Shown: in pieces, positions 1,711 to 54,930 of the stretch | Numbering within the stretch: the stretch's first letter is position 1 | Layout of the letters: every line of letters starts with the position of its first letter | NCBI RefSeq assembly: GCF_902652985.1 | Contig: NC_047026.1 | Location: forward strand, 3,906,001 to 3,970,000 | Direction: 5' to 3' | Length of the DNA stretch: 64,000 nucleotides | Source of the DNA: Pecten maximus | Lineage: Eukaryota | Translations under genes and position numbers: made by a program | The notes under the pieces: model-generated | Database searches by the model: none | The model's input: only the letters and a program-made list of their open reading frames with translations | Told to the model about the DNA's origin: nothing

Positions 1711-4344
1711 TGGTGGGCAATCAGGAGATGTCATCAAAAGAAACATTTACATGTTTTATCAATTTGAATATCCTGCCATCCAATCGGGAAACTCCTATTA
1801 CTAGTTACCTGTCAGTCGAGCTAATGTGATTGTAGTATTGTGGAACATGTTATGGTAGTTTAGGTTCTAAATTACAGATACATAATAATCATACCTTATA
1901 TAATCCTCAGTGTATGTTTAAGTGACGTATTCAGAAGGATGTGTCCAGTGATTAATTAACAAATCAGTATATTCAGGAATGTAATAGAACACCTTTGATC
2001 TAGATTGTATTGAGATAGCCATTGGACTTATTCCAAAAATTGAATGCCTGCTGTGTATCGTGACGTCAGAGTTCTAAAAATAGTATTTGATTCATCTGAA
2101 CTACCTGTGCATGTCGTCAGTTTGGAGATCTGCCTGATAGAATATATAACTAGACCTCAAATACCTGTGTTAAAAGATAATGTCTTCAAGGTCACCACAT
2201 AATACTTTAGTACACTGACTAGTATGAAGAAAATATAGTGGTGACAGAAATATCTAAAACAATAGAGGAACATGAGTAGTATTAATGATATAAAGGCATC
2301 ATCACTTCATGCCCCCCCCCCCTGGAAAATAACTGTTTCCCATAGTCACCCATCCCCCCTCCATAGCCCCTACTCCTCTCCCAACCTCTCCCCTCCGTAG
2401 TCCTTCGCTACTCATCCCTTAAACCCTGCCCTTCCATAGTCCATGTCACCGTCTCAACCCTCGCCCCTAGTTATTCCTATCTCAACCTCTCCATCCATAG
2501 TTCTTTTCCTTCCCTGGTCGATTCATCAACTTTTGTCTAAATCCTTAAGAACATAACATAGGTAGGTTATATGGAAGGAATGGTGACAGAGGGGTAAGGA
2601 CTATTGAAAGAGGGTTGACAGAGGGTAAGGCTTATAGAAAAGGACATAATCGTTGTTTACTAAATTTGATCAGAAGCATTCTTGGGGGGAAGGAGAACAG
2701 ATAATATATAATTAATGAATCTAGAAACCCTGGCACTGTAGGAGCAGGGCCCATTAAGGCTACTATATGTAAATTCTTTAAGAGGATTTTAAATGAATTT
2801 TCGGAAGTATACTCAGGGGAAGGGAAACCAATTGATGATCAATGGTGAAGTTGGCCTTTCTGTGGGCGGAGTTACAGGACATGCAATAGGAAAACGATGG
2901 TAAACCCTTTGAATTTCTATTCGTCCTAAAGGACTGAATGGAATTTTATGAAATTTGGTCTTGATTATTGTTGGGTAAAGGAGATTCCGGGTTGTATAAA
3001 TGAGGATTATGGATTCCCCTGGGCAGGAAAAGTGGTGTCCAATAGGTAAAGATAGCAAATTCTTTAAAATGTTTTTTTTTTTTTTTTTTTCACAGGATTT
3101 GATCTACATTTGATTTCTAGATTCTTCTTTGGATTCAGAAAGCTTAATATGTCAGTTTTAGGAAAGTGTAGACTACAGAATAACTAAATTAACCTCAGTT
3201 TTGTCCTTGATCAGGCCAATCTACTATATTCTTTCCACATGTTCAACCAGATAGGAATGAAACTTTTGAGAATTTAGAAATGCCGCATTTTAACATTAAG
3301 TAGATACCTTAGTGGAGAACACTTCTTTCCAGAAGTAGACTTAAACCACAAAATGGTACCAGCACATTAATGAATTTCTGTAGAAAGGGGAAAATATACT
3401 TTATTTTTCCAAACTTGTCATCACTTTGCAGTCATATTGATCAATGCCACCTTCTTAGTTCTTTATTTTCAATAGAGCTGCACCTACAAGCAACTACATA
3501 AAAAGAGGATGGCCGAAAAACCTAGTGAGGGTATTATTTATACAAGAGCTGTACCTTCAAGTAATTCTAGTGTGAGTATTATTTACATTTTGGGTACCTC
3601 TGTATTGAAATGGAATATATATGGCTAAACTAATACGAACTTCCTTTTCGACTGCAACACTGGACATCAAATTATTTTTGAGAGATCTCCTTGACTGACA
3701 GTCAAATATCAATCATTCTATTTGTCATTTTCTACAGATGTCCTCAGCTGAACGTCAAATACTAAACCCTCTGTTGGTCTTTTCTATAGGCATCCTCGGC
3801 TGACATTCCTATACTAAACACTTTTACATTTTACAGACGTCCCCAGCTGATAATCATCAGTATAAAATCAGAAATCTATATTCTGATATGGTATTACGTC
3901 TCCGGGAAATGATCAACCCAAATAAGAAATCGGCCTGGGACACACTTTTGACAGCACTAGACCCATTGTTACCTCATGAACTCCATGGTGATGACATAAC
4001 ATATATTGGACAAATACTTGAGAAGTTGAGGGCAAAAGGAAAGATTGATCTTATGAGAGGTTCCTTTGAGAAACTCCATGATGCACTCAAAAAAGTTGAT
4101 GTTGATGCAGCCAAGGTTGTTCAGGATACTATTGTCTTAAGGTTTGTCCTATTATATTTACTTGTTCTTAAATATAATTTTGTTTTAAATGTTAAATCAT
4201 AAATAATCACACAAACTTGGTAATGGTAAACCATTGATTAACGGCTTGTAAGGCAGGTCCTATAAAATGTTATAGTATGCTTCAATTTCAGCAGGAGAAT
4301 GATTAAGTAATGATTGATGTGTCCTTTTAATATTACAATAGAAC

Positions 4345-4954: not shown

Positions 4955-5325
4955 GAGACTTGTGTCAGATTGTGTATAAGACATCTATATAGATATACAC
5001 AAGACAGTGAAACCTGTAGTGAGGCTGTATATAAGACATCTATATAGATATTCACAAGACAGTGAGACCTGTGTGAGGCTGTATATAAGACATCTATATA
5101 GATATACACAAGACAGTGAGACCTGTGTGAGGCTGTATATAAGACACCTTTATAGTTATACACAAGACAGTGAGACCTGTGTGAGGCTGTATATAAGACA
5201 TCTATATAGATATACACGAGACAGGGAGACCTGTGTCAGATTGTATATAAGACATCTATATAGATATATACACGAGACAGGGAGACCTGTGTCAGATTGT
5301 GTATAAGACATCTATATAGATATCC
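4955..5325 (+). repeat. 54-bp minisatellite A (GAGACCTGTGTGAGGCTGTATATAAGACATCTATATAGATATACACAAGACAGT), ~7 copies
   Basis: Direct tandem units; 18-aa periodic ORF 5007-5306. Confidence 0.9.
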
Positions 5326-6432
5326 ATTAAGTGATGGATCAGATAACATCAGACAGCCACAATGACTAAGTGATGGATCAGATAACAACAACCGGCCATA
5401 ATGACTAAGTGATGGATCAGATCACATCAGACAGCCACCATGACTAAGTGATGGATCAGATAACATCAGACAGCCACAATGACTAAGCGATGTATCAGAT
5501 AACATCAACCGGCCACAATGACTAAGTGACGGATCACATCAGCCAGCCTCAATGACTAAGTGACGGATCAGATAACATCCGCCAGCCACAATGACTAAGT
5601 GACGGATCAGATCACATCAGCCAGCCTCAATGACCACGTGACGGATCAGATAACATCAGCCAGCCACAATGACTAAGTGATGGATCAGATAACATCAGTC
5701 AGTCACAATAACTACGTGACGGATCAGATCACATCAGCCAGCCTCAATGACCACGTGACGGATCAGATAACATCAGTCAGCCACAATGACTACGTGACGT
5801 ATCAGATAACACCAGCCGGCCACAATGACCACGTGACGGATCAGATAACATCAGTCAGCCACAATGACCACGTGACGGATCAGATAACATCAGACACCCA
5901 CAATGACTAAGTGATGCATTAGATAACATCAACCGGCCACAATGACTAAGTGACTGATCACATCAGTCAGCCACAATGACCACGTGACGGATCAGATCAC
6001 ATCATTCAGCCACAATGACCACGTGACGGATCAGATAACATCAGCCAGCCACACTGACTACGTCACGGATCAGATACCATCAGTCGGCCACAATGACTAC
6101 GTCACGGATCAGATAACATGAACTAGCCACACTGACTACGTGACGGGTCAGATAATATCAGCCAGCCACTATGACTACGTGATGGATCAGATAACATAAG
6201 CCAGCCACAATGAATACGTGACGGATCAGATAACATCAGACAGCCACAATGAGTACCTGACGGATCATTTAACATTAGTCAGCCACAATGACTACGTAAT
6301 GTATCAGATAACATCAGCCAGCCTCAATGACTATATGACGGATCAGATAACATCAGCCAGCCTCAATGACTATATGACGGATCAGATAACATCAGTCAGC
6401 CACACTGACTACGTGACGTATCAGATAACATA
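5326..6432 (+). repeat. 39-bp minisatellite B (GTGACGGATCAGATAACATCAGCCAGCCACAATGACTAA/C), ~28 copies
   Basis: Direct tandem units; 13-aa periodic ORFs interrupted by TAA-containing units. Confidence 0.92.
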
Positions 6433-6679
6433 TGGCCTTGACCGTAGGAGGATGGTTACATGAACTGTTATTGTTTGATACAAAATTGATATTTTGCGTG
6501 CTCTTTAACACACAAACATTAATATTTCAACTTTCACAAGCTGCTGTTTCTGATGACTTCTTGTCGACCTTGTCCTGCAAACTCACCTATCATAGCTTTA
6601 AACTTAGGATCCAATTTTGTAAAATAAAAGGATATAATCAACTAAACAATAATTTATGTAATATGACATTGTCTTACTT

Positions 6680-7212
6680 GCTGTCTTGTGTGTATCTATA
6701 TAGATGTCTTATACACAGCCTGACACAGGTCTCCCTGTCTTGTGTATATATCTATATAGATGTCTTATATACAATCTGACACAGGTCTCCCTGTCTCGTG
6801 TATATCTATATAGATGTCTTATATACAGCCTGACACAGGTCTCTTAGTCATTGTGGCCGGTTGATGTTATCTGATCCATCACTTAGTCATTGTGGCTGAC
6901 TGATGTGATCAGTCACTTAGTCATTGTGGCCGGTTGATGTTATCTGATCCATCACTTAGTCATTGTGGCTGTCTGATGTTTTCTTATACATCACTTAGTC
7001 ATTGTGGCTGTCTGATTTGATCTGATCCGTCACTTAGTCATTGTGACTGGCTGATGTTATCTGATACGTCATGTAGTCATTGTGGCTGGCCAATGTTATC
7101 TGATCTGGCACTTAGTCATTGTGGCTGGCTGATGTTATCTGATCCGTCACGTAGTCATTGTGGCTGACTGATGTTATAAGATCCATCACGTATTCATTGT
7201 GGCCGGCTGATA
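6680..7212 (-). repeat. Inverted copies of minisatellite A (6680-6842) and B (6843-7212)
   Basis: Reverse complements of the 54-bp and 39-bp units, e.g. CTTAGTCATTGTGGCTG.CTGATGTTATCTGATCC. Confidence 0.9.
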
Positions 7213-7904
7213 GAAACAGATTGTAGTATTTTCTTGGTGCAGCATCTGTCGCCTCTCAACTTTTTACGTTACCCAAAGACACGCGCAGCCATCTTTGATT
7301 CTATGATTTAGAAAATTTGTAGTTTATCACCATTTCTTGAGAAGTAATGTTAGCTATTTTGCAACTTATATGAAGGTTCCCATTGACCCTAGTTGTGTCC
7401 CGTTTAATATTGAGACTGATTGGTACCGTATTTAGAAATAAGAAAGGAAGGAAAAAGTAAAATAAAAATATCAGTCTTACACAGAACCAACAAGATCATT
7501 ATTTTGTTGGCGCCAAAAATCATATTGAGTGATTAAATGATTTATTCGTTGTCATGGATTGAACATCACAATATTTCAGATTCGATTCATTAGAATTGGG
7601 GAAATCCTAATAAGGAAGGACCAGTTTAATTCACTATCATTTGCTAATTTTAATTGTTTTCAAAAACGTAGTTAAATCAGAATATTTAGTCTGAATTTTG
7701 ACGGATCATGAAGGTCAAGGGTTTGAAATAGTGAGAAGCATTGATTGGCTAATAGGCGAGCGATGTAGGTTCTTTGGGCCATTTTGTAATAGTTTGTATT
7801 TAAACGTACATGCATTTCTTCAGAGAAACATTTAATGTATTAATAGTAATATGTGACAAGTTATACAGATATTTATATATACAAAAAATATATATATATT
7901 TATA

Positions 7905-8005: not shown

Positions 8006-10388
8006 ATTTAAACGATACACGATTTCATCATCAAGTTGAACTATATATTTATATATATATATATTTTGTAGTTGTTTAGTTTTTGCACTTCGGGGTTTTC
8101 TATCATTTTTAAAGTAAAAATATCTTTTCTGGTGCACCCGGGGTACTGGCTATTTCATGCTGATGTTAATTCTTATAAGTATAATCTTATTTCATTGCAG
8201 ATACAACAAAGTCTGCAATACAAACAGAAAAAGAAAGCTACCAGTTTGTTTCTACCAAAAGTCTCAAAGATGCCCATCAACAACTTCTGGAGAATAAGAT
8301 CGTTATATTTCAGGGAAACACAGGGGACGGAAAATCGTCTATTGCACTTGAACTTCTACGTTTGCTGTGCCATGATGAGAAGGAGGGGCAACAGAAACGA
8401 TGTAGACAACCACTACAACTACACGATCTAACAGACTTAGATTCGGTTTCACCAAGATCACAATTAGTTATTTTGTTAGATGATATATTTGGAAAGAATG
8501 TTGTGTGTCGGGAAGATGTGAAAGAATGGGAAGAAACGAGAAAAAGGAATTATTGCAAAACTTCGTAGAAATGAGACTGAGGCCAATTATCTTGTCATTA
8601 CAATTCGCAGTGGAATTTTGAATTCTTTGAATTGCTTGGAAAAATCATTTATCAAACAAAACATTGTTGACCTCCGCCAGTACAAAGATGAAAATGAAAA
8701 ACTTACATTGTTAAGGGTGTATGAACCAGAAGGTGAATTTGTTAAATGGACAGATGATGAGGAGAAACAGATTATTTCCTCGGCACCTGACATTGGGTTT
8801 CCGCAGTGTTGTAGGTTATTTAGGGACACACCTAGTTTACAAACAGAAAGAATCAAATTCTTTAAAAGACCTTTACATCATTTTAAATTGTCTTTGTCTG
8901 ATTTAGAAGACGGGAAAATTTATGGTCTGATGTATCTATTCCTCAATGGTGGCTCAGTTATGGAACATGATTTAGACCCTTCCATTGACAAAATTGAGGA
9001 AAATGAGAAAATGAAAGCAGCATTTGCTTTTGATGTAGTCAAAGTTAACCCAACACGTGAGTTAAAATACTAAAAAGAGAAGAACGCTGAATTTGTAAAA
9101 GAGTCGTTAGAATGCCTTTTGGGGTGGATGATGAAAAAAAGAGTCTACACAAAAACAGGGGAAAAAATGTCCCTCTTACAAATTCAGCCACGACTCCATT
9201 GAGGAAACTGTGGCACTTCACTATGGAGAGAAAAAAAAACCATTGGCTACATACAGAATTGTCCCAAAATGTTCCTCAGTTATTTAGCTACATCAAAAAA
9301 CACCCCAAACAGGATAATTATATCATCTGATGATCAAACCAATGCCATGTACAAACGTACAGTGAGAGAGTTTGAATCTGTTCATCTAAAAAGTTACTTG
9401 CAATTTAGTGAGTGTGAATATTTAGCTACATTAGACGTATGGACAGATACCCTGTTTCTACAGGGATTAATCAGATGGCTAAGTGATCAGATTGATGATC
9501 AAAACTTATGCCACCAGATACAATGTGCATTGTTAAATGGAGCATGCTTAACTGGTTCAGAAGATAGTGTCTGGTGTCTCCTTGCTGTGGGTGCCACACC
9601 TGACGAGGAGACACCGTTTTGTGTTGTGAACGATGGGAATGTACAATTATTGAGTAAACTACTCAAAGATTTTGTCATTCCTACAGAGAGGGCACACATG
9701 TCAGGATCATCAAGTTATACTAGAAATAACAATGTTCTACACGAGGCGTGTTTGCTTGAGAGAGAAGAGATGGTGACAATGTTATGTGACACTTATCCAA
9801 ACTTGGTACACGATACTGATCACGATGAACTAAGCACGCTTCATGTTGTGGCAAAGACCGGAAACTGTAGTATATTTCAGACAGTGGACAGCATAAGTGT
9901 GAGTCAGAAGATGGTCGTGTGGTACATAGGAGTTGTGTGTGTGGGCAATACATGTCACAGTTAGTGGACAAATGCAACGGGATGACAGTGTTACACTGGA
10001 GTTGTATGTTTGGACACAGGCAGCTTAGTTTAGAGCTGTGTAAATGTTATCCAGCACTAACCACAGCTGTAGATAGCCTAGCGTATAATTGTCTACATTA
10101 TATAGCCAGGCGGACGACAGATGTAGACATGTTCACTAAGTGTGAACTTCACGTAAAACAGTACATAGAGTTAACAGGAGGTACGTATGACATCACGACC
10201 ATACTTACTAATAACGGGAATCTGTTTTAGACTTGGCAAAGGAACAGATGGAGTTAAGTAGCAACCCTTTGCATGATCATCTTGTCAAAGTGTTTAGTAA
10301 ATAAAATTACTCAATATTATTAACACTTAAGCACGCTTGTTAACTGTTATTCATAGCAATGATTAATGGGACACACCCCTTTAAGAAA

Positions 10389-22000: not shown

Positions 22001-25000
22001 ACACCTTTTATATGTCATTGTATTGGATATTTGCATGTGTTGGGTGCTGTTTTTAACAAATCAACTTTTAAATAAGGTCAGCTTAGTCTGTCGCCTATAG
22101 TCGACAGAGGGTAAGAGGGAGCTTGGAATTATGTCGACTATAGTCGACAACGGGGAAGAGGGGGGGGGGCACATTTTTATGTCGACTATAGTCGACAACG
22201 GTACTGAAAGAGTTAAAGACTATACTTACGGCAGGACGGCGACAGTCAAGGAATTAGCTGGCATACCACTCTTATCACAGGCCAAACTTTTGACTAGCTG
22301 ATGAACGGCAGCCTTGGCCATGCCATACCCAATCATTCCTGTAAAATCAAGCAAACATCTTGTACTTCTATAAATCTAGGTCTACTTTTCCCTTAATGAA
22401 AGAAATTAACTCTTATTTTGCTTTTTTTTTTTAACTTTTACATTGCTCTGCAAATTTCAGTGTTTTTTTTATCCTGCTCCTACCCCAAATTGATAAGTTA
22501 AAAGGGATCGGGTTTAATACACTGGATATGCACAGAGCTTATATATTTAGGCATTAATGAGATACATCACATGTAAAAATTCATCTTAGGACTGATGAAC
22601 TATAGGACATTACATAAAACCATAGCAACCAGATATATATCACATCATAGGTTTTCTTTTGGTCACTATAGCAACATTTACGTATATGATATATTTGCCA
22701 TTCCTCAAAACTATTATACCAATTTTAAGCTTAACTGGACAATATCTCAATTTCGGCTGATCAGAAGCCTCTGTTATGTTTCAACAGTAACGTTTCTGGA
22801 AACATATCCATTGATAAATTACACTACTTAACCAAGTTTGAACAAGGAATTAGGTCTGTTTCACTAAGTGGCTAGTACTTTAATGCATCTGCGACCTTTG
22901 ACACCATGACCTCTGGAGTGTGTCAGAAGTGAAGCTTACATCCATCTCTACAATTTTCCAAGACAATTAGCCGAGGGAGACACAAGAACATGTCATGAAT
23001 AACAAAGAAGATCCATTGAAATCCTGTTATAGGTGTTACAAAATTGTTACACTCTTACAATGGGTCTATAAATATTTTTTATTTATTTTAGTTTAATAAA
23101 AGTTTATAAAGTGTGGTTAGAGGCCAGAGAACCAGATATGTCCTAAGGGAGGTAACTCTTACAATGGGTCTGTAAAACTTACCTGGTGTACCCTCCAATG
23201 CGGGCATGGCCCCAGGCAGGGTCAGAACTCCACCTTCCTTCAAATGTTTGGCAGCAACGCCTCCCGATATAGCCGAGGTCCATACACTCTGTTTCCACAT
23301 TGCATCAGCATTTTTTATGAAGGCTGAAATATTAATATATGTATATTATTAAGTTATAATAATTAATGGTCGGGTGGCACAGTGGTAAAACACTCGCCTT
23401 CCACCTAGACGGCTGGGGTTTAAAAAGGTTTAGGGTCACCTGCCGGAAGATGTTGTTATGACATCATCACATATTTGGACAGTACATGACATCACAACCA
23501 ATTGTATTGAGGGGTCGCCTAGCTGCGAAAACACTTATACTTGTATGTACCATGGTTTCATTACTTGCGACACATTTAAACAATATTTCCTACATATCTA
23601 TACCTTATACAAGAAGCATACACATGTATATAACACCCTCCCTGCCAAGGAGTTGAACAAACCTCATTGATATAAATTATGATTGCCACCTTCTAATTAT
23701 TTGGTTGTAACTTGTAATCCATTATTGGCATTAAGGAGGAGTAGTGCTTTCAAGCTAATTTTTTTTCAGCTAAGTTTCCTTTACAGGTGCCGAACTCTCC
23801 ATCCCCAGGGGTCGAACCAGTCTCATTTATATATAAATTATGACTGAGCTCCCTCAATGATGTTTCAGACCAAATTTGGTTGTAATTCATTAAGGCTTTA
23901 AGCATTAAGGAAGAGTATCATTTCAAAGGAAAATTTCATCCAAGTTCTCCTTTTCGGGCTTCTTTCCCCAGAGGTCGAACCAGCTTCTTGTATATAAATT
24001 GTGATTCCCCGTCCCAATTAATATATTGGACCAAATTTGGTTGAAATTCACGTTGACATTAAGGAAAAGTAGCATTTGAAAGTAAAAGTTTACGCACGGC
24101 TCACAGCAACAGACTGAAAATGATGGCTACATGTCATTCTGACCATTTGGGTCCGATGACCTAATAATGACAGATCTGATTGCCCTCACCTTTAGCAGCG
24201 GCGTTACCACCTGCCCAGCCACCAGCCACACAGAATACTCCGTCTAACTTGTTACCCTCCAGGAGCCTGTCCATTTCTCCCAATATCTGGGTCTCCTGGT
24301 CCGTCCATGAGTCCTTAGTATTCACCAGAATATTGGCATCAGCTTGTTCATTTGGTGTCAGATCAATTGATCCAACCCACTGCAAAATCAGAAAACATCA
24401 ATTTTCGATAAAACCTTCAACTCCCAAAGCTAGAAATTCAACTTTAGATCTACCACATAAAACAAGACTTAGTAGAAGTGTAGCGGAAGCTGGACCGAGT
24501 CAATCGTCGGCGACCGGGTAGCTCAATCAGTAGAGCGTCTGGCTAGTGTTCGGAGGTCCCGAGTTTGAACCCCGGTCTGGCCGTGCATTTTGCCACTCCT
24601 ATTACATTTGGGGCCTGTGACCAAACCTTGTTTCAAGTGAGGTAAATACTTGACAAGGAGATACCCGAACCTGGGTTGTGAGTTGTGAAGTCTACTGGGT
24701 CGAAGACTTAAAAAAATAGGAGGGAAGAGTGTAGCGGAACTAGACCGGGTCGATCATCAGCGACCAGGTAGCTCAATCGATAGAGCATCCGGCTAGTGTT
24801 CGGAGGTCCCGGGGTTCGAACCCCGGTCTGGCCGTGCATTTTCCCACTCCTATTACAGAAGCATTCTTGCTGATGACTGCTGATGTCTACTGCAGAATCT
24901 TAAGTGAATTTCACCGATAAAAAGCACAATCCACTCTTAATTGTCTGGTATGACAGGCTCCATTCAAAGATCAGCTCTACATAAGTAAAGACTGTTTGGT

Positions 25001-39760: not shown

Positions 39761-40839
39761 ATAAAGAGAAACCATTTAATTTTTTAGAGTGGAAAAACAA
39801 TTCTTAACTTCCATTTATTGCAATCCTGAATATCAGTTAAAACATAACAATACCCTGGTAACATTGATAATACATATTGTATCTAGGTAGTTAAAATGAT
39901 GACACTATAAGAATTTCAACCATAATGTTCTACAATCGGGTAAATGTTTTCATCATTGACTCTAAGCCTTGTACTTAACCTAATTTTATTAGATTCCGCG
40001 TTATACACTAAAAATGTGTTTTCAGTACATACCCGGTATATACTTTTCTGTATACAATTGTAAATGTACAGAATATTCGATAGTTTTCTGTTGAATATCA
40101 TATATGTATATAAATATATTAAACAAGTTTATGTCAGAATATTAAGCACATAATAATATAAATCCAACTCGCATGCAATTAACATATTCCTCATCTGTCA
40201 ATATATCAAGGTAGTGTTTCTCTGTCAGCAAGGAATATCTTGGGAATATTTTATTCTACATCTCTATTTCAGAATATAAACCACCTTCACCGTTTTTTCA
40301 GGATATATTGGGAAGTTTGCTACCCGACTGAAAATGGTGAATTTTTGCCAAGCAAAGTTTAAAAGTAAGATGAGAGGGAAAATTGCTGTCGAGAATAAGA
40401 AAATAAAAAATGTCGGTAATTTTGAAGACTTAATTTGGAAAAATAAACACACTATTTAGGACGGTGCCTAATTACTAGAACTTTCCTCATAGATTGCATT
40501 GAAAGTGTTTCAAGTGAGAAAGACTCAACATTGCAAATTAGTCATGTTTTGAATTGCTTATACTATATATGTCGGAGCAAATACAACTGAATGTAGCCGG
40601 GAACCACGGGCCTGTTCGTTTATACGGACAAAACGGTTCGTCATTTTTTAAATGTAATATTTCAAACATATATCTTGACGGACCTTCAAATGTTAATACA
40701 GGCCTTGGGAGTCTTTGTCAAGGCTCGTCTGAAAACTATATAAAATCACCAGGTCTGTCTTAATTTCATAAACGAACAACACCGGTCCAAGTGGTCTAAC
40801 CGTTTGGACCGCAAAAACGAAAACGGCCCAGATCAACGG

Positions 40840-43322
40840 TTACCCGTGCATTTCTATGAAGGGGAAAAGAGATACGGGGACCTCAGTGTGATAAGGTATT
40901 TTGTAGCGCATGATGACCTCTGCCGATAGACACCTTAGTGTACGATATTGCAGAGGGGGAACAGGCAGCCCCTGGTTTTGCATCATCTGCAGGGCACTTA
41001 ATCCTTCCCCGTTGTAGATGTCCACATGAGCACCGTTCTGAAGTAAACAAGCCAGAATGCCTTCATTTTGAAGTTCCGAGTAAGTGAGAAACTTAATGCT
41101 GTTGTGAAGTGGCGTGTTTCTTTTCTTGTCCACAGCATTAGTCTGGGCCCCGCAGGTGATAAGGGTCTGAACAACGGCCAACGATGGGAAGGGAGAATAG
41201 AACTCCTCACTGGTCAGCGAGATCTTTGGATCCACCGCCAAGTGCAGTAAGCTCTCCATATCTTGACCACGTGGGTCAAGAGTAACGAGTCGGTGCACAA
41301 GTCTGTGGAATTCAAATTTCTGTTGATCTTTGGGCTCCAGTCGAGATATGAGATGGACCACATGTAGGGAGAGCTGTAGAAGCAGTTGAAAGTCGCCAAG
41401 TGAAGAACTTGGGTTCGTAGGATTTGTCTTAAGGAAGTTTATTCCACCTTCAATTTGCTGAATCAGTATTGAAAATACTTCAAATGCATCTGTAATTTGT
41501 ACCTGTAAGAAGAAAATTAAAAAGAATTTTGTTTACAAGTTGTCTGATATTACTGACTTCAATTTTACAGACAGTGTCATCGTCCGATACCCACGGTTGA
41601 TTGCACTATGCTACACTACACTTATAATTATCACCCATGGGTCAACTCGGAGAAAAATTCTCATTTCAATTAGAAACTATGAGGACCTGTTATAACATTT
41701 GTTTTTTATTTAAACTTTTAGGGAACAAAAAGGCATCTCCCTAAATTAGCCGTTATTCATAATAAGCACATAATATGCAATTGTAGAAAATGATGAACTT
41801 TAATTTGATCAAAGTATTTAAAACATGTCAATGGAAGAGTCTGCACAATATTTCACTACAAGTTTGGAATTTATTTTACTTAACGATTCAAGTCACTGTG
41901 ACCTTAATAATATGTATTGACACACTTTCTATGGGTGACCCAGATCAGCTTCAGTACCATAATTTTTCACATCCAAACTGGAAATCAAATCAGTCGCCTT
42001 GGTGAAAGGTGAGTGTATGGTCATTACTTAATCACCATTTTTACAAAAATATCATTAATAATCAATACCTTTTCCTCTGTCGCTCCAGATTCTAGCTCCA
42101 CCTGCATCTCCCAAAAGAGCTTGATGAGAGCCTGTACGGTGAACAAACATTCGTGGTTGAGTGGTTCCCCCTTCTTGTTCCTCAGTATGTAAGCATATTT
42201 CCACAAATCCACACATCGTTGATACCTATGGCTGTCTGCATACACTGCACCTCTGTACATCAACCCGAAGGTGGTGTCCTTGTGGAACGGTCCAATGACT
42301 CTCTCTCGAATAAGTAGAGCCTGCATGTACACATCATCTGGTTCGATGATGTCCTCAACTTCCTTCAAAGTAGTGGGTTCTCGCGCATGCTGATATGCAA
42401 AATTGGTAGCTACGGGTAGATCTTTCATTATTATATTGTTTGGATCCGAATATCTCATGGACATGGCTTTTTTCCACACTGACAAAGCACGGACAATATC
42501 ATGTACTTCATCAACAAAGTTTGTACCAAGGAGTTCGTAGGAATGAATTGCAGTTTCTTTATTCTGGACAGTATTTTCTAAGATATAGTCTACAATTATA
42601 GTAAATCCTCGCAATGCCGCCGTTTGTAAAGCATCATCACCGAAATCATTTTTGGCGGTGTGATCTGAGCCACAGCTCAACAGGAGCATCACAGTGTCCA
42701 ATCTACCCTCCCTTATAGCATAATGCAGGGCAAGGTTGCCAGAGTTGTCCCTCGCATTCACATCGACACCTTTCGATATTAGAAACTCACACAGACGAAC
42801 GCTTTGAACCGAGTTGATCAGACATGTTCCGCCATTAATGTTTGGTTTGTGGATGTCCGCACCATTGTCCACTAAAAGTTTCACCACCGAGATGTTTGTC
42901 ATGTAGCAAGCCGACCGCACCGGCGTCGACTCTGTGTCAGAAGGACTGTTTATATTGGCACCGTGGGATATCAACGATTTCACCACCTCCAGATTTCCTG
43001 CCACAGCCGCGCACCATAATGGCGTCACATCGTGTCGAGAATGGTCAATCTCTACTTCGTAAATTCCACGCTGTTCATAGTCTCCGCCACATTCATCCAG
43101 GATGTAATTGCCGATGTGTACTTTCCCCCTGAGACAAGCATTAAACAGGGCAGCATTACCGTTGATTTTGAAATTGACAATTTTGCGTCGTTGATCTTTA
43201 GAGAACTTCCTGAGTGTTGCCTTGAGTTTGCTGAGCTTATCCTCCTGAATACAGTTGTGTACGATGGAGGCATACCACGAGACATCAACATCCTCGCAGC
43301 GAGCAGACGTACATGCCATCAT
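40840..43322 (-). CDS. FEM1: Protein fem-1 homolog (FEM1 family, CRL2 substrate adaptor), ~638 aa; coding exons 42069-43322 and 40840-41502
   Basis: Ankyrin repeats TPLWCAAVAG, STPVRSACY, GGTCLINSV, central YRGAVYADS..RCVDLWKYA, C-terminal ankyrin NTPLH and BC-box TLRCLSAEVI; GT-AG intron 41503-42068 phase 0. Paralogue (A/B/C) not assignable by eye. Confidence 0.93.
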
Positions 43323-43898
43323 GCCAACAGCTACTTTCCTGCAAAACAAGATACCATAATTATATATAAAGGTGACTTCAATTTTTTTTTCCTTAGAGAG
43401 TATTAGTATTGAAAAGCCCCTCCTGTACTTTTCATAAGGACTACACAGTCTGTGTTTCCATTACGAGAAAGATTTGAGAAATAACCAAATGGTTTGTAAT
43501 CAATGATGAACCCCTCCACAAATATCTTGATGTAGTATATATATATTTCTTAAGGGATATAGTAACAGAAACATTAAAAACAGAAATTTTATTGTAAAAT
43601 CACTTCAAATAAATAAAACAACCTAGTTCATAATTGGGATCTTATCAGAATCTACACAAGTCAGAGAGCTTATCTGAAATATTGTTTTTGTGAAACCGTT
43701 ACAATAAAATTATTGTATTAGTGTTTATCTATGTCGTGACTGGCTTGTTTTTGTTCTAATTATCAAAATAGTATTGTATTGATAATTTTCATAATGGAAA
43801 AACAGCTATTTATATCATGTGAAACCATACAAACTGTCTCATTTGAGCTTTTTTGCCATTCAGACGAAAAGTTCGTCCGCTAGTCAGCTTTATATTCT

Positions 43899-44346
43899 TG
43901 TAAAAGTTCAAGGAGTAGTAGTGTGCAGCCAGCAGGGATCGAACCCGCGACCCTCGGCTTACTGGTCCGCCGCTCTACCGACTGAGCTAAAGGGAAATTC
44001 CCCATAGCCGGAAGCTATAAGGCGACCATACAACTATGTACAGTATTTACAATTAAAACCCGGCCTGCTACACTACTCCCTCCTTCAAACGTGTTCGCCC
44101 CCGAACACACCAACCCAGGTTCTCTCTCCAAGGAAGCCTATTGCTTTCACTTGGAGTGGTCTGCGGCACCAATGTAAAAGTTCAAGGAGTAGTAATGTGC
44201 AGCCAGCCGGGATCGGCCCCGCGACCCTCGGCTTACTGGTCCGCCTCTCTATCAACTGAGCTAAAGGGAAATTCCCCCTAGCCGGAAGCTAGAAGGTGAC
44301 CATACAGCTATGTACAGTATTTACAATTAAAACCCGGCCTGCTACA
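43899..44346 (-). mobile_element. Complete TRIM with tRNA-derived LTRs (second family), Helenus/TRIMp3-like; LTRs 43899-44072 and 44173-44346
   Basis: 174-bp LTRs TGTAG..TTACA on minus strand; PBS TGGTGCCG; PPT GAAGGAGGGAGTAG; perfect 4-bp TSD TTCT (43895-43898, 44347-44350); A box TAGCTCAGTCGG, AGT loop, B box GGTTCGATCC. Confidence 0.92.
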
Positions 44347-45119
44347 TTCTCTTTTAGCATTTTGTGGTTATATTTGATATTTAATATTTTTGTGATACAG
44401 CAGTATTAAAATTTTATGCTGGCGTACTATAATACTATAAGTGTCATGCTCTACCTTAATGGAAACACTGATCACTCAACAATTTTAACACAGACTTTAG
44501 CAAGGAGCAAAGATAGACAAAGATAGACAGTGGAAAACAGAATTGAAATATTTCACTTTCACACACTCTGTCCCATATTTTACTTCGTCCCCAGCTTCTT
44601 GTTTAATTCAACCACAGGGGCATGTCTAGTCTTAAATAAAGGTATTTCTGGCTATTTTTTTTTTTATATATAAGATAGACATGCCCCTAGCTGTGATTCA
44701 ACCCCCTCCCCTCCCAACAGGGTTATCAGACAGTGATTTCAGAAAATTGGGAACACTAGCATCAGACAAGTTCTCCATATAGCTTGCATGAAGGCGTATC
44801 TACGCTCAATTTCTTAAAATTAACACAAGAAAAAAAATTTAACTTGCGTCATTATCGCAAACAAAATCCGGATAATTGCGTCAGCTCCCGACTCCATTTT
44901 TCAGTTAAGCAGAATACGCATGAGCACAAGTCACAAAGACGCTTCGAAAATGTGGGTTATACATGTGTGTTTTTAAAGCGTTTTCATGATCACGATAATA
45001 AAGTATAAACATGTGTGCGGTGAAGCAATCATCGCTGCGACAAAATTTGCTTTTCACGTAAGGAAAATCATTCTGAAAGACAAATAGAAACATTTATCAA
45101 AAACATTAGATGTGTTCAT

Positions 45120-46325
45120 GGGTTTGAATATCAACTGTTTACAAGAAACACCCGATAAGTCACTAGGGGTGGAGAAAGACCCCAGGGCTATTTTACATGA
45201 TCGTGTTCATCTCTTGATGCCCTTGGTTCAAGGGAAATTGTTTATAGCAAAATATAGCTCAAGTTTCCTCTGGCCCCGACACCATGTATACCAGACATGG
45301 TGTCAGTGCCTTCATTCAACCCCATTTGGGTCATGCAGTCTCCTCATTTGTAGCTTTTTGAATCTCCACCACTCGGGGAAAGCTACCAGTCAAATATGAA
45401 CGATATCTATAGCTTTGTTCCAGTGAAGAACTTGTTTATAGCAATAAAGCCAAATTTCTCCCTTTGGGGGTCAGCCCCACCATTTGTAGCTTATATAATA
45501 CAACCACCAGGAATGCTACCGAGGGACATCGATTTGATAGAGAACATCCAGAGGAGGGCCACAAAACTCATACCTGGTTTTAAAAACTTGTCGTACCCGG
45601 AACGCTTGCAGAGACTGAAACTGCTAACCTTAGAACACCGAAGGAATAGAGGTGACCTAATCAACGTCTTTAAAATCGTGAAGAATATTTATGACGAGCG
45701 AGTCACAACAAATATGTTCCAAATGGACACCACCAGCAGGACAAGGGGACACTCGCACAAAATATTCAAAAAAAACGATGTAACCTAGACATAAGAAAAA
45801 ACTTTTTCAGCTTCAGGGTAGTAGATGTTTGGAACAATTTGCCACAACATGTTATAGATGCCGAGGAGGTTAAACAGTTTGAAATTGCACTGGACAATCA
45901 CTGGGATAATAACAACAAATAACTTGTGTATATATATGAAAAAGGACAAATTAACTCATTGCACACCAGATGTATATCACATTGTAAACATTGTAATATC
46001 AATTGATATGGACATAGAGGCTTACAGCCTGCGTCCATTATTTATCGTATTAAATCGTATTAAATCGCTACCAGTCAAATATTATTAATATCCATAGCTT
46101 TGTTCCGGAGAAGTCATTTATAGCAATATAGCTAAATTGCTGCCTTTTGGCTCAGACCCTCAGCTCCCGTCTCTGGCCGACCACTTACTTTTAATATGCT
46201 TCTTTTCAAATTTGGTTAAATTCCAATCAGTAGTTAGGAAGAATAAGTCGTTTTTGTGAAATTGTTGACAGACGGACGGACAACAGATGCCACAGTATGG
46301 CCTAAGCTCACCTTTTATGAGCTAA
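45120..46325 (+). mobile_element. Helentron/HINE-type remnant interrupted by a CR1 insertion
   Basis: Internal repeats GCTACCAGTCAAATAT..TAGCTTTGTTCC on both sides of the LINE; 3' GACAGACGGACGGAC and TAAGCTCA..TGAGCTAA. Confidence 0.55.
45521..46066 (+). mobile_element. 5'-truncated CR1-clade LINE (ORF2 C-terminus, 3' UTR, tail)
   Basis: DIDLIENIQRRATKLIPG..LSYPERL..RRNRGDLINVFK..RTRGH; tail (ATCGTATTAA)n; 6-bp TSD GCTACC (45515-45520, 46067-46072). Confidence 0.9.
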
Positions 46326-46547
46326 TAATATAATTGAGGAATCAGTAGAAAACATAGATTCAGTTGTCAATACATGTATATTGGATAAATGAGATGGAGT
46401 GAAATCACTGCTGCCGACTCGTAGCGAAATTCAACACTCTGAACCATTTATGATTGATGACCCATGAGATTGGAACAAAAAGTGAAGAAATCGAAAAGAA
46501 TGAATTAACTGAATAAATTTAACAAAAATCGTTAACATCATTCTTAC

Positions 46548-46900
46548 CGTCATTTATTGATTGAAACGTTCATTTCGTCAATGTGTAGGCATCTAGATCT
46601 AGCCAAGTAAAATCCGAAATGAAATGGAACAAGTAGGCCTACACACAACTTTCACATAATGGTTGAGCCTGTAGAAACACATCAACTCTGACTTTGTCAA
46701 AACGCACATGTCGTTATGTATACTGCGTAAATCCAAATATGTCTTTAAATCTTCGGAAAGAGGACTATCACAACAATCCAAATACACCGCTTCGTCAACA
46801 TACAGACCGAACTCTCGCCAGTATGGGCGTGGCCAATTGACCGACTTCGATAGCTTCTCTCTGATTGGTCAATCCGCCACAGTATGACACGTCACTAGCG
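46548..46900 (-). promoter_or_regulatory. Putative FEM1 promoter and non-coding first exon (donor at 46547)
   Basis: GC box GGGCGTGGC 46825, CCAAT 46833, ATTGG 46864, CACGTCAC 46888; minus-strand donor ACG|GTAAGA; FEM1 coding exon has an acceptor at 43339-43340 just upstream of its ATG. Confidence 0.6.
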
Positions 46901-46983
46901 GAGGTCACAGAGTACTTAAAAGCATACTTGTAGCGATGTAAAACAATGTTTCTAAACATATGCGATAGTAAACGTGTTAGAAT

Positions 46984-47145
46984 GGGGATAGTACATTGTT
47001 TTTCGTGGCTATACTGGCGATTAGAACATGAAATTTGGTTTAAACTCTCGACCTATCGGTCTCGAGTTCAAACTCGCTCTCGAGTTCAAACCAAATGTCA
47101 TGTTCTAATCACCAGTATAGCCACTCCAAACAACGTACTATCCCC
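46984..47145. mobile_element. Palindromic MITE, 162 bp
   Basis: Long imperfect inverted arms GGGGATAGTAC..GTGGCTATACTGG..TTAGAACATGA / TCATGTTCTAA..CCAGTATAGCCAC..GTACTATCCCC. Confidence 0.8.
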
Positions 47146-47159
47146 TAAATATTGAACTT

Positions 47160-49740
47160 TTCCAGATGACAGTAAGATCTATGGAAAAATGAGGCAAGTA
47201 AATAGCATCCAAAATGACCTGAAAAAATGTGAGAATGGTCTAGAAAATGGCAGCTGAAATTCAAAACAGAAAAATGCTTAACACTACATTTAGGACAACA
47301 TAATCCAGGCATCAAATACACAATGAGGGCAGAAAACAAGGATAAACTACTACAAAATGTCAGCTTAAATTCAGTGTGCATGTCTGTAAAAAAAAGCCAA
47401 TTATTTAATAGGATGACAGGTTTTATAAGAGGAACCTTCAAAAATTTGAATAAGCAAATGTTTCTGATATTATACAAAGCTCTGATTAGATCACAAGTTG
47501 AGTGTCATTACATGATGGAGTCTAATGTTTTTAAAGCACATACAAGCCATTGATGGAAGTTCAAAAGGCTTGCAACAAAACTAGTGTATGGGCTGTGAGA
47601 AAAATCTTACAAGGAAAGGCTATTATCCCTTGGTTTACCATTCAAATATATAATTTAATAATTTGCATATACAAATTTATCCAGAAAGGTAAAAAGAAAA
47701 TAAATTATCAAAACATCTAGAGAAACCAGAACAAGAGGACACAACAAGAAATTGGAAACAAGAGATCCCAGAGGGATCTTGGCGCCCACCATTGAATGAT
47801 CTTCATAGGTTCCATGTCAGATTGATCTTTTCTCTACTTTTCCCTTCATTTTACTAATCTGTGCAAATTGAGACATCCCTCCAGTACTTTTCAAACAAGG
47901 GAATCCTAGCTATATAAGAAATTTGAGATTTAACGATAATGGGTGTTTGTTTGCCAGGTTGTTTTCAGGACAGACTGGTCCAAAAATGCATACAAGGGAC
48001 CAAGGGGAACCTACTTATGAAATTTGAGAAAGATCCATTCAGTACTTTGAGAAATAGAGATAACAAACTTCAATTGTCAAAATCCAAGATGGCGGTCTGT
48101 CGGCCATATTGTTTTCCAATTGATCTCAAAATGCAATAAGCATAACGAGGCACCAAGGGGAACCTCCATATGAAATTTGAGAAAGATCCCTTCAGTACTT
48201 TCTCAGAAATAGCGATAACAAATTTCAATTGTCAAAATCCAAGATGGCTGCCTGTCGGCCATGTTATTTTCAGATTGGTCTCAAAATGCAATATGCATAA
48301 CTAGGCACCAAGGGAAACCTACTTATGAAATTTCAGAAAGATCCATTCAGTACATTCTCAGAAATAGCGATAACAAACTTCAATTGTCAAAATCCAAGAT
48401 GGCTGCCTGTCGGTCATGTTGTTTTCGGATTGGTCTCAAAACGCAATATGCATAACTAGGCACCAAGGGAAACCTACTTATGAAATTTCAGAAAGATCCA
48501 TTCAGTACTTTCTCAGAAATAGTGATAACAAACTTCAATTGTCAAAATCCAAGATGGCTGCCTGTCGACCATGTTGTTTTCCGATTGGTCTCAAAACGCA
48601 ATATGCATAACTAGGCACCAAGGGAAACCTACTTATGAAATTTCAGAAAGATCCATTCAGTACTTTCTCAGAAATAGTGATAACAAACTTCAATTGTCAA
48701 AATCCAAGATGGCTGCCTGTCGACCATGTTGTTTTCCGATTGGTCTCAAATCGCAATATGCATAACTAGGCACCAAGGGGAACCTTCATATGAAATTTGA
48801 GAAAGATCCCTTCAGTACTTTCTCAGAAATAGCGATAACAAACTTCAATTGTCAAAATCCAAGATGGCTGCCTGTCGGCCATGTTGTTTTCGGATTGGTC
48901 TCAAAACGCAATATGCATAACTAGGCACCAAGGGGAACCTTCATATGAAATTTGAGAAAGATCCCTTCAGTACTTTCTCAGAAATAGCGATAACAAACTT
49001 CAATTGTCAAAATCCAAGATGGCTGCCTGTCGGCCATGTTGTTTTCTGATTGGTCTCAAAACGCAATATGCATAACTAGGCACCAAGGGGAACCTTCATA
49101 TGAAATTTGAGAAAGATCCCTTCAGTACTTTCTCAGAAATAGCGATAACAAACTTCAATTGTCAAAATCCAAGATGGCTGCCTGTCGGCCATGTTGTTTT
49201 CCGATTGGTCTCAAAACGCAATATGCATAACTAGGCACCAAGGGGAACCTTCATATGAAATTTGAGAAAGATCCCTTCAGTACTTTCTCAGAAATAGCGA
49301 TAACAAACTTTAATTGTCAAATTCCAAGATGGCTGCCTGTCGGCCATGTTGTTTTCCGATTGGTCTCAAAACGCAATATGCATAACAAGGCACCAAGGGG
49401 AACCTACATATGAAATTTGAGAAAGATCCCTTCAGTACTTTCTGAGAAATAGCGATAACAAGAATTGTTTACGGACGGACGGAGGGACGACGGACCACGG
49501 ACGCAGGGCGATTTGAATAGCCCACCATCTGATGATGGTGGGCTAAAAACAACAGGCAAGGATATTAAAACATCAGGAAGCATTTCTTTGGAGTTCAGGT
49601 TACAGATAACTGCAATAGCTATAGCTTGCCAGAAAGTGTGAATGCAGGCACATTCTATGGTTTTAAATCTGCTTTGAACTGCCATTGGAAAACTCTTGGC
49701 GGGAAGTTCAACCCAAGTTTCGGAACTGTATAAACATTTA
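47160..49740 (+). mobile_element. Degenerate CR1-clade LINE ORF2 fragment split by a Helentron-type insertion
   Basis: WSRKWQLKFKTEKC, LYKALIRSQVE, RTRGHNKKLE before 47757 and KQQAR..IRKHFFG after 49547. Confidence 0.75.
47757..49547 (+). mobile_element. Near-intact Helentron-associated (HINE / pearl-like) non-autonomous element carrying ~9.5 x 155-bp tandem repeats
   Basis: 5' palindrome AAGAGATCCC-AGA-GGGATCTT, short subterminal IR CGCCC/GGGCG, (GGAC)n microsatellite, 3' hairpin TAGCCCACCATC-TGAT-GATGGTGGGCTA; CCAAGATGGC recurs every 155 bp from 48084 to 49324; inserted in an A-run, no clear TSD. Confidence 0.85.
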
Positions 49741-50377: not shown

Positions 50378-51754
50378 ATAAATAACTAAGTGGTTACTGG
50401 TATTTTGGTACCAATCTTATCCAATAGAGAGTTACTTCCCTTCTTTTCACTCTGTCAGATGATATACAGTGATAGCTTTGATTCTACTGACTGAGCTGAT
50501 GAGAAAGTGTCCATGGCAGGTTGTTGGATGACAGACATTGTTTTGACAAGTTATGTAACTTGTGTATATTGCATCAGTTCATGCTTTGGGTTTTGGGAAA
50601 TGTCATCATGGCAGAGACATATATAGATGGTGTTTAAACTGTTAGTGTTACAGGAATAGATCTGTTACAACAACAACTTCAGTCTGTAACATATTTAATA
50701 AACAAACAAAAATAACATATGAGCACCTGTTACTATTAGATTAAGTGGAAGAGTCTGGACAGGATCATAGCACCTGGAATCCTATCCAGAAATAATTATT
50801 ATACTGTATTACTATGAAAAAGGTGAGAGAACCAACACTCCTAATGTATCAAAGTGCGGCACTGCTCCTGAATGGATACCAGATGGTATTCAGTAGAGGT
50901 CCTTACCATGTGGTGAACATATTATGTAGAAATAAAGGATCCTCAACATCCATAGCAGTTGTGTTCTTTTATTGTGGTGCATACATCGTCTACATGTTTC
51001 GACCGCTATGCGGCCGTCATCAGGACAATTTTACATATAAAAATATGGTTATAAGGTAGGCTTTTGCGCAACTTAAAAAAACAGCAGAAATATAAATATT
51101 ATCATATATATATTAATTTAGTTAACAATTCATTGATAATGCTCGTGTGAATAGTCAAATCCCTGTGGTAAAAGGCATTGAATGACGGGAATAAGACGTT
51201 CTCTCAGTAAATAGTGTCATTTTACTACTAAAAATAGCAGCACTCGTATAAAAAATATAGGCTATCAATGCTACTATTTTAGTCTACACGAAATAGATCC
51301 ACTAGGCCTAGTCTCCGTGATAACCATTGAACGTCGGCATTTTGTTTCAGATCTGAAGCAATTTATAACATTTGAAAACTCATGATTATTTCGATTTGTC
51401 ACATTCAATTACCCAACTACAGTCCATGAGTTATACAACCAGAACGCCTGTCTCATACACCTTGGCCTACCGTAGTCAAGTCATGTTGACGGTCGGTTCG
51501 AACTTCAAGCTTCTACGCGACAACACCTTACCTGTAACAGATTACCGTAAAGACGAGAAATATGGAAACATTACTGTCGAGAATATTTAAACGAATATTT
51601 ACCTGTACAAAACTCTGTTATTGTCGTCAAGCAATCAGAAGTTAAGCTGTTAGACCAATGTATAATGAATTAATTTAACATAATAGTGGGTGGCTGACTC
51701 CGCCGCCACTTTGCTAGCGTGTTACAAACACTCCAGAGACGTCGATGCAGAATA

Positions 51755-52939: not shown

Positions 52940-54930
52940 GCATCTTCCCTCTTTCACCGAAATGTCACATTTACTTCTTTCACGTTGAAGATCTCGCATT
53001 TCTCTCTTGCACGTTGAAAATGTCATATTTGTGTCTTTCACGTTGAAAATTTTGTCATATTTCCGTCTTTCATGTTGAAAATGTCATATTTCAATCTTTC
53101 ACGTTGAAAATGTCATATTTGCGTCTAATGTCATATTTCGGTCTTTCACGTTGAAAATGTCATAGTTGTGTCTTTCACATCGAAAATGCCATATTTCCGT
53201 CTTGCACGTTGAAAATGTCATATTTGCATAATGTCCTATTTCCGTCTTTCACGTGGAAAATGTCATATTTGTGTCTTTCACATCGAAAATGCCATATTTC
53301 CGTCTTGCACGTTGAAAATACATGTCATATTTGCATAATGTCCTATTTCCGTCTTTCACGTGGAAAATGTCATATTTGTGTCTTTCACATCGAAAATGCC
53401 ATATTTCCGTCTTGCACGTTGAAAATACATGTCATATTTGCATAATGTCCTATTTCCGTCTTTCACGTGGAAAATGTCATATTTGTGTCTTTCAAGTGGA
53501 AAATATCATATTTCGGTCTTTCACGTTGAAAATGTCATATTTCCGTCTTGCACGTTGAAAATGTCATATTTGCATAATGTCATATTTGCATAATGTCGTA
53601 TTTCCGTCTTTCACGTGGAAAATGTCATATTTGTGTCTTTCACGCGGAAAATGTCATATGTACGTCTTTCACGTTGAAAATGTCGTATTTTCGTCTTTCA
53701 CGTGGAAAATGTCATATTTGTGTCTTTCAAGTGGAAAATATCATATATACGTCTTTTACGTTGAAAATGTCGTATTTCCGTCTTTCACGTTGAAAATGTC
53801 ATATTTCCGTCTTTCACGTTGAAAATGTCGTATTTCCGTCTTTCACGTTGAAAATGTCGTATTTCCGTCTTTCACGTTGAAAATGTCGTATTTCCATCTT
53901 TCACGTGGAAAATGTCATATTTGTGTCTTTCAAGTGGAAAATATCATATGTACGTCTTTTACGTTGAAAATGTCGTATTTCCGTCTTTCACGTTGAAAAT
54001 GTCATATTTCCGTCTTTCACATCGAAAATGCCACATTTCCGTCTTTCACGTTGAAAATGTCATATTTGTGTCTTTCAAGTGGAAAATATCATATGTACGT
54101 CTTTTACGTTGAAAATGTCGTATTTCCGTCTTTCACGTTGAAAATGTCATATTTCCGTCTTTCACATCGAAAATGCCACATTTCCATCTTTCACGTGGAA
54201 AATGTCATATTTGTGTCTTTCAAGTGGAAAATATCATATGTACGTCTTTTACTTTGAAAATGTCGTATTTCCGTCTTTCACGTTGAAAATGTCATATTTC
54301 CGTCTTTCACATCGAAAATGCCATATTTCCGTCTTCCACGTTGAAAATGTCGTATTTCCGTCTTTCACGTTGAAAATGTCCTATTTCCGTCTTGCACGTC
54401 GAAATGTCATATTTGCATAATGTCCTATTTCCGTCTTTCACGTGGAAATGTCATATTTGTGTCTTTCATGTTGAAAATGTCATAATTTTCGCTCCGATGT
54501 ATGTGTTTCTCGGAAAGCCGAGAAACAGGCCCTTCTGTACTGCCGTGGTGGTATCCTTGGGCAAGACGCTTGTCCCTCATTGCTCCAGGCCAGCATGCTC
54601 CAGCATGCAACAGGCCTCCTGCATGAACTTCAGTGAGGTAGTCACCAACTACTACAAGGATGCCCTACCTCGAAATGACCCTGGCTGTTCATGGGGTTAT
54701 AAACCCAACAATCAAAATTTTTCTGATATAGAAAATGTCATACCCATACCCGAGTATTTCGATCCTTCATGTTGAAAATTTCATATTTCCCTCTATGATG
54801 CTGATAATGTCATATTTCTGTTTTACATAAAAACATTTTCATATTTCATATTGAAAGTGTCATATTTTCCTCTTTCATGATTTTGCAAATGTCACATTTT
54901 CAAATTAACAGTGTCATATTTTCTCTTTCT
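52940..54930. repeat. 29-bp satellite (TTTCCGTCTTTCACGTTGAAAATGTCATA) with 113-bp and 145-bp higher-order periods; interrupted at ~54495-54715 by a SINE
   Basis: Tandem units; ORF track repeats at offsets of 113 (53209/53322) and 145 (53912/54057/54202). Confidence 0.92.
54495..54715 (+). mobile_element. CORE-SINE fragment
   Basis: GTATCCTTGGGCAAGACGCTT (CORE motif), tail AAATGACCCTGGCTGTT..TAAAC. Confidence 0.65.

Follow-up and report, generated by a model that had tools for sequence, protein, structure and literature searches.

What kind of element lies on the minus strand of Pecten maximus DNA, upstream of a gene for an ankyrin protein, and how would it have been transcribed and copied? 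The locus belongs to a 64,000-nucleotide stretch that was analysed as a whole (the window), and an earlier note had described it as a pair of 174-bp LTRs on the minus strand around a 100-bp core. Measurement returned the same figures. A repeat finder reported a direct repeat of 174 nt in two copies (43899-44072 and 44173-44346, 94% alike), and the complete element, at 43899-44346 on the minus strand, is 448 bp long and consists of a 174-bp LTR, a 100-bp core and a second 174-bp LTR. Its parts, in the direction of the element, are:

44347-44350, no strand: upstream copy of the target site duplication (TSD), TTCT on the plus strand, from the flank sequence
44173-44346, minus strand: 5' LTR, 174 bp, TGTA...TACA; agrees by eye with the LTR consensus of Helenus-3_PeMa at 166/174 positions
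44332-44329 and 44058-44055, minus strand: T4 run at LTR positions 15-18, from the sequence
44199-44270, minus strand: tRNA-like segment of the 5' LTR, not scored by Rfam
44073-44172, minus strand: internal portion, non-coding, 100 bp; 99/100 identical to Helenus-3_PeMa-I (by eye)
44157-44171, minus strand: primer-binding site (PBS), His-type, from the sequence and Fig. S2C of PMC10886601
44073-44086, minus strand: polypurine tract (PPT), abutting the 3' LTR
43899-44072, minus strand: 3' LTR, 174 bp; 171/174 identical to the consensus (by eye)
43925-43996, minus strand: tRNA-like segment of the 3' LTR, boxes intact, AGT at 43963-43961
43902-43905, minus strand: T4 run close to the end of the LTR, where Pol III might stop (5' LTR counterpart at 44179-44176)
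43895-43898, no strand: downstream copy of the TSD, TTCT on the plus strand, from the flank sequence

Both LTRs run from TGTA to TACA on the minus strand and align without gaps, with 11 mismatches in 174 positions (six transitions and five transversions; K2P distance 0.066). On the same strand, the core opens with a T followed by TGGTGCCG, which thus starts one base past the 5' LTR, and closes with GAAGGAGGGAGTAG, which directly abuts the 3' LTR; the PPT adjoining that LTR is a 14-nt purine tract with one T inside. The tRNA-His PBS, the PPT and the TTCT duplication that had been proposed are all present. The PBS is identical to that of Helenus-3_PeMa, which Fig. S2C of PMC10886601 places under tRNA-His, beside Gypsy-39_CGi. 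The duplication is exactly 4 bp long (extension to 5 bp fails), and, given the local base composition, the flanks would match over 4 bp by chance with a probability of about 0.006. None of the 15 open reading frames of at least 120 aa in the window overlaps the element. A length of 448 bp (below 1000 bp), two LTRs and no coding capacity are the characters of a TRIM, and the PBS, the PPT and the 4-bp TSD are those of Helenus.

Helenus elements were defined by Kojima 2024 (PMC10886601) as TRIMs bearing tRNA-derived sequence in their LTRs; they have 4-bp TSDs in animals, and 51 of their families come from pteriomorph bivalves. Table S1 of that paper gives, for the P. maximus family Helenus-3_PeMa, an LTR of 174, an internal portion of 100, a full length of 448 and a TSD of 4, and the element has each of these values. 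Compared by eye, and with no aligner, with the Helenus-3_PeMa consensus of Data S1, it is identical at 436 of 448 ungapped positions (core, 99/100; 3' LTR, 171/174; 5' LTR, 166/174), which lies within the definition of a full-length copy in PMC10886601 (more than 90% identity over more than 90% of the consensus). At all 11 positions where the LTRs differ, the consensus letter, again by eye, is that of one of the two. Contigs from three DNA runs and one presumed RNA run were mapped to 40600-47500 at 88% likeness. They offer a check that does not depend on the eye: the 3' LTR differs from the consensus at 44004, and there the consensus letter accounted for 98-100% of contig depth in all four runs (42, 47, 46 and 13 contigs, respectively). 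We conclude that the element is almost certainly a genomic copy of the non-autonomous LTR retrotransposon (TRIM) published as Helenus-3_PeMa. Its class, family and species are therefore already known, having been in print since 2024 (Kojima, PMC10886601).

The same contigs bear on a different origin, namely that a tRNA-SINE was duplicated locally in tandem and acquired its flanking TTCT by chance. The window holds only one full copy of Helenus-3_PeMa, and the duplication is a match of 4 bp alone; both points would suit such an origin. Against it, the spacer between the repeats is a PBS-to-PPT core, 99/100 identical to a multi-copy consensus, and the tRNA part is not a 5' head but begins within a TG...CA repeat, at LTR position 77. 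The marks of a tandem tRNA-SINE (a 5' tRNA head, a LINE-type tail and no PBS/PPT core) are not those of the element. Depth summed over contigs came to 25531, 78940 and 52418 in the three DNA runs for the bin of the 3' LTR, as compared with 9-45 for the FEM1 exon; this is 1650-2800 times the exon value in every DNA run. Such a sum does not give a copy number, and it takes in sister families (contigs with loose ends occur at 43934 and 44003). The bin containing the core itself stood at 400-1100 times unique depth in all three. In run X4, 25 contigs left the element exactly at 43899 and entered mutually unlike flanks (agreement 0.42). Helenus-3_PeMa is therefore a dispersed, multi-copy family and not a local SINE duplication. 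The condition under which the earlier note would have been wrong, a structure unique in the genome, fails on these contigs and on the published family, and local duplication can be set aside as almost certainly incorrect. The note's wider view, of non-autonomous TRIMs with tRNA-derived LTRs forming an old, diversified and abundant lineage, agrees with the published Helenus families and with contig depth.

A second element of the window, called family 1, lies at 24479-24857 on the plus strand. It is 379 bp long (128/123/128) and has a 4-bp TSD. The two families had been called independent, with unrelated LTR flanks. As for the flanks, the LTR parts outside the tRNA segment have no similarity (255/2000 and 571/2000 shuffles score as high). 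Independence did not survive the comparison of the cores, which are homologous in global alignment (0/2000 shuffles) and, with PBS and PPT removed, in local alignment (2/2000 shuffles), with a 12-bp exact block in common. Since the cores align far above chance, the two are not independent inventions; judged from their sequences, they are distinct sister families within a single His-primed lineage of bivalve Helenus. The size of family 1 is that of none of the five P. maximus families listed in PMC10886601. By eye, its LTR resembles that of Helenus-2_PeMa (129 bp, Lys-primed, 90-bp core), and its core is His-type and homologous to those of Helenus-3/4/5_PeMa and oyster Helenus-2C_CGi. Family 1 may possibly be a sixth family that the list does not include, or a mosaic of LTR and core.

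In each LTR of the Helenus-3_PeMa copy, a tRNA-like segment begins at about LTR position 77. It had been claimed that both LTRs contain A and B boxes with an AGT anticodon loop. AGT does occupy the anticodon position in both LTRs, and the A box (43989-43978) and B box (43945-43935) of the 3' LTR are intact. The boxes of the 5' LTR are altered: its A box (44263-44252) has two changes, and its B box (44219-44209) is broken by two changes at the GGTTC core. Accordingly, all three Helenus motifs are found in the 3' LTR, while the 5' LTR retains TRGCY and is without YGG and GGTTC.

If the segment were a gene, the LTRs would encode a functional tRNA-Thr(AGT), or would furnish the element's own primer for reverse transcription. 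The position of AGT and the pairing of the D and T arms in the 3' LTR fit a tRNA, as does an Rfam tRNA match, obtained for the 3' LTR only, which at 29.8 bits barely passes the cut-off of 29 and covers model positions 8-63 of 71. The features of a tRNA gene are otherwise missing from the 3' LTR segment: the acceptor stem forms three of seven pairs (two of them G-U), the anticodon stem forms three of five, and position 33 is C, not U. The tRNA-like part folds no better than shuffled sequences (z-score -0.46). ARAGORN called neither LTR a tRNA, its sole call in the window being the 3' LTR of family 1, as tRNA-Thr(AGT). No PeMa family appears among the possible tRNAs listed in Fig. S1 of PMC10886601. 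As to priming, the tRNA-like 3' end pairs loosely with the PBS (-14.6 kcal/mol), and 105 of 2000 shuffles equal this value; host tRNA-His fits the PBS much better (PMC10886601, Fig. S2C), and family 1 has no such pairing (447/2000 shuffles). With a whole-LTR value of 81/500, and all shuffles being of mononucleotides, self-priming was judged marginal and was dropped; Kojima 2024 (PMC10886601) likewise rejected the idea for Helenus. Either role is, in our view, very improbable. Because the tRNA part has no acceptor stem, AGT is merely positional, and the loop, by its predicted pairing and C33, is not the working anticodon arm that had been supposed. We infer that the tRNA-like piece is a promoter, and neither a tRNA nor a primer.

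Relative to the consensus, the copy has 12 private substitutions: eight in the 5' LTR, one in the core and three in the 3' LTR. Four of those in the 5' LTR fall in the boxes, two each in the A box and at the core of the B box. A recombinant origin was considered on account of the 8:1:3 spread and rejected, the asymmetry not being significant (p 0.13-0.23). Because its LTRs are about 6.6% apart and the B box of its 5' LTR is lost, the copy is probably no longer a source of new copies. Only under commonly assumed rates would its age come to millions of years; no scallop neutral substitution rate was found in the available part of PMC10294476. Contigs show presence of the insertion only, and none of the 15 joints listed, out of 170, skips the element as an empty site would. 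A contig from a separate study (run X5) continues from the upstream flank into 30 bp of the 5' LTR, just short of the required 31 letters, which is only a hint that another animal shares the insertion.

The gene downstream is defined by a minus-strand open reading frame at 42024-43460, which encodes an ankyrin protein. The closest solved structure is FEM1C (E 2.8e-89), with residues 20-406 aligned to residues 6-393. The corresponding exon is:

42069-43338, minus strand: first coding exon of an ankyrin gene resembling FEM1C, with its ATG at 43322 and its boundaries inferred from splice motifs

The element and the FEM1C-like gene are both on the minus strand, so the sense orientation stated earlier is correct. 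A splice-acceptor-like site at 43338 precedes the ATG and lies 560 bp downstream of the element. Because of this site a 5' intron is plausible, and so is a position of the element within it. No splice joint at 43338 was found among the 15 joints listed, out of 170, with one presumed RNA run represented (X11, one of 24 runs listed). Lying upstream of the gene's first coding exon, the copy is probably a passenger. The stretch at about 46550-46900, which looks promoter-like, was considered by eye as a first exon of FEM1 and rejected, being a high-copy repeat with a summed depth of 9000-125000 in the DNA runs. Short high-copy repeats with many unlike flanks also occur at 40608-40828, just beyond the FEM1C stop, and at about 41578-41625, inside an intron of the FEM1C coding region.

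How would an intact member of the family be copied? In the scheme that we favour, Pol III would transcribe it from the A and B boxes of the 5' LTR, starting at about LTR position 77, and the transcript, about 370 nt long, would stop at the T run close to where the 3' LTR ends. R would then be most of the 3' half of the LTR, repeated at either end of the RNA. An autonomous Gypsy element would package this RNA, host tRNA-His would prime the first strand and the PPT the second, and integration would produce a 4-bp target duplication. The 4-bp TSD points to a Gypsy helper, and for animal Helenus, mobilisation by Gypsy was inferred from PBS and TSD (PMC10886601). We regard this Pol III/Gypsy mechanism as likely.

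T4 runs stand at LTR positions 15-18 and 168-171, making four in the element, and both are also in the published Helenus-3_PeMa consensus. T4 can stop metazoan Pol III. Pol III can therefore make a full-length RNA only by reading through two of these runs, one where the 5' LTR ends and one where the 3' LTR begins. A literature search on T4 read-through yielded no mollusc study. Either T4 read-through is leaky enough, or the genomic RNA is made by Pol II.

The second possibility leaves the identity of the element unchanged: Pol II, acting from the 76-bp U3 or by read-through from the host, would make the RNA that is reverse-transcribed, and the A and B boxes would serve otherwise, e.g., in the production of short LTR RNAs or in TFIIIC binding. 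In addition to the two runs in the path of a Pol III transcript, it draws on the presence of the U3 T run in Helenus-5_PeMa and Helenus-4_ArIr as well, and on Kojima 2024 (PMC10886601), where the Pol III function of Helenus is given without experimental validation and, in the available portions, without transcript data. No experimental test of Helenus Pol III transcription was found in the accessible literature from 2024 on, in which a meeting report simply repeats the original account. It has against it that boxes A and B are the conserved part across Helenus families, while other parts of the tRNA decay (PMC10886601), and that they are conserved in the element too. In addition, Pol III transcription from within the LTR is reported for Cassandra, the 5S analogue (PMC10886601); the available text of PMC7215508 mentions LTR promoters and terminators for Cassandra, with no mention of read-through. 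In the presumed RNA run, depth was 2595 in the LTR bin versus 547 in the core-containing bin, an excess that does not discriminate between Pol II and Pol III because the DNA runs are similar. We consider transcription by Pol II rather unlikely, and transcription by Pol III remains the preferred reading.

A further proposal, which we put forward as distinctly doubtful, builds on transcription by Pol III. Replication of Helenus-3 would need read-through of two T4 runs and a stop at the third; most transcripts would be tRNA-like LTR RNAs of about 95 nt, and the leakiness of the terminators would set the transposition rate. From its place 560 bp upstream of FEM1C's first coding exon, the intact 3' LTR of the present copy could still give rise to such an RNA or be bound by TFIIIC, and so act on the gene.

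Several other features of the window were recorded. A solo LTR, clipped at its 3' end, lies at 20271-about 20424 on the plus strand and by eye matches Helenus-1_PeMa, a third Helenus family in 64 kb. At 50483-50520 on the minus strand, a decayed stretch resembling the A box matches the LTR weakly (E 0.03-0.08) and may be a further relic or chance. Within the very high-copy region 46400-47300, an imperfect palindrome of 162 bp (about 46984-47145, 80% self-complementary) looks like a miniature DNA transposon or the end of one. A high-copy, stop-free frame of 144 aa at 45354-45788 on the plus strand gave no Pfam match and presumably resembles the C-terminal end of a CR1/L2-type LINE ORF2. Tandem repeats include a satellite at 47986-49461 (9.5 copies of a 155-bp unit, 95% matches), a long 29-bp satellite array with higher-order variants at 52960-54484, and two 39-bp minisatellite arrays in opposite orientation at 5292-7221, forming a large inverted repeat. 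Death-domain, P-loop (GNTGDGKS) and ankyrin-like frames, split over several reading frames, are found at 3804-4202 and 8185-9964 on the plus strand; we take them to resemble a bivalve NLR-like protein.

The element thus represents a known, rarely cited family recovered from raw sequence. As the call made in family 1 illustrates, LTRs that carry tRNA sequence inflate tRNA gene calls. The Helenus families of scallops offer a convenient system for studying Pol III transcription of tRNA-bearing TRIMs and the question of their Gypsy partner.

Among known systems, Helenus-3_PeMa is the one that the element matches in LTR, core, total and TSD lengths and in an identical PBS; the window copy differs from it in its private substitutions and in the broken B box of its 5' LTR. 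Argopecten and Mizuhopecten contain closely related sister families (PMC10886601). Helenus-5_PeMa, Helenus-4_PeMa, Helenus-4_ArIr and Helenus-2_MiYe have the His-type PBS, core motifs and 4-bp TSD in common with the element, and the tRNA-like segments of Helenus-5_PeMa and Helenus-4_ArIr are nearly identical to its own, but all four have unlike U3 and U5 and different LTR/core lengths (157/113, 153/120, 156/113 and 158/89, respectively). The bivalve biv-TRIM (Satovic et al. 2019, PMC6934838) likewise has two terminal repeats, a short core and a PPT, but no canonical PBS was identified in it according to the available text, whereas the window element has a tRNA-His PBS together with A and B boxes. 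Cassandra of plants and Ajax of nemerteans, the other TRIMp3 groups, resemble the element in that each LTR carries a Pol III promoter from a small-RNA gene. In Cassandra and Ajax this sequence comes from 5S rRNA, in contrast to the tRNA of the window element, and Ajax has 5-bp TSDs and uses tRNA-Leu, as compared with the 4-bp TSD and tRNA-His found here.
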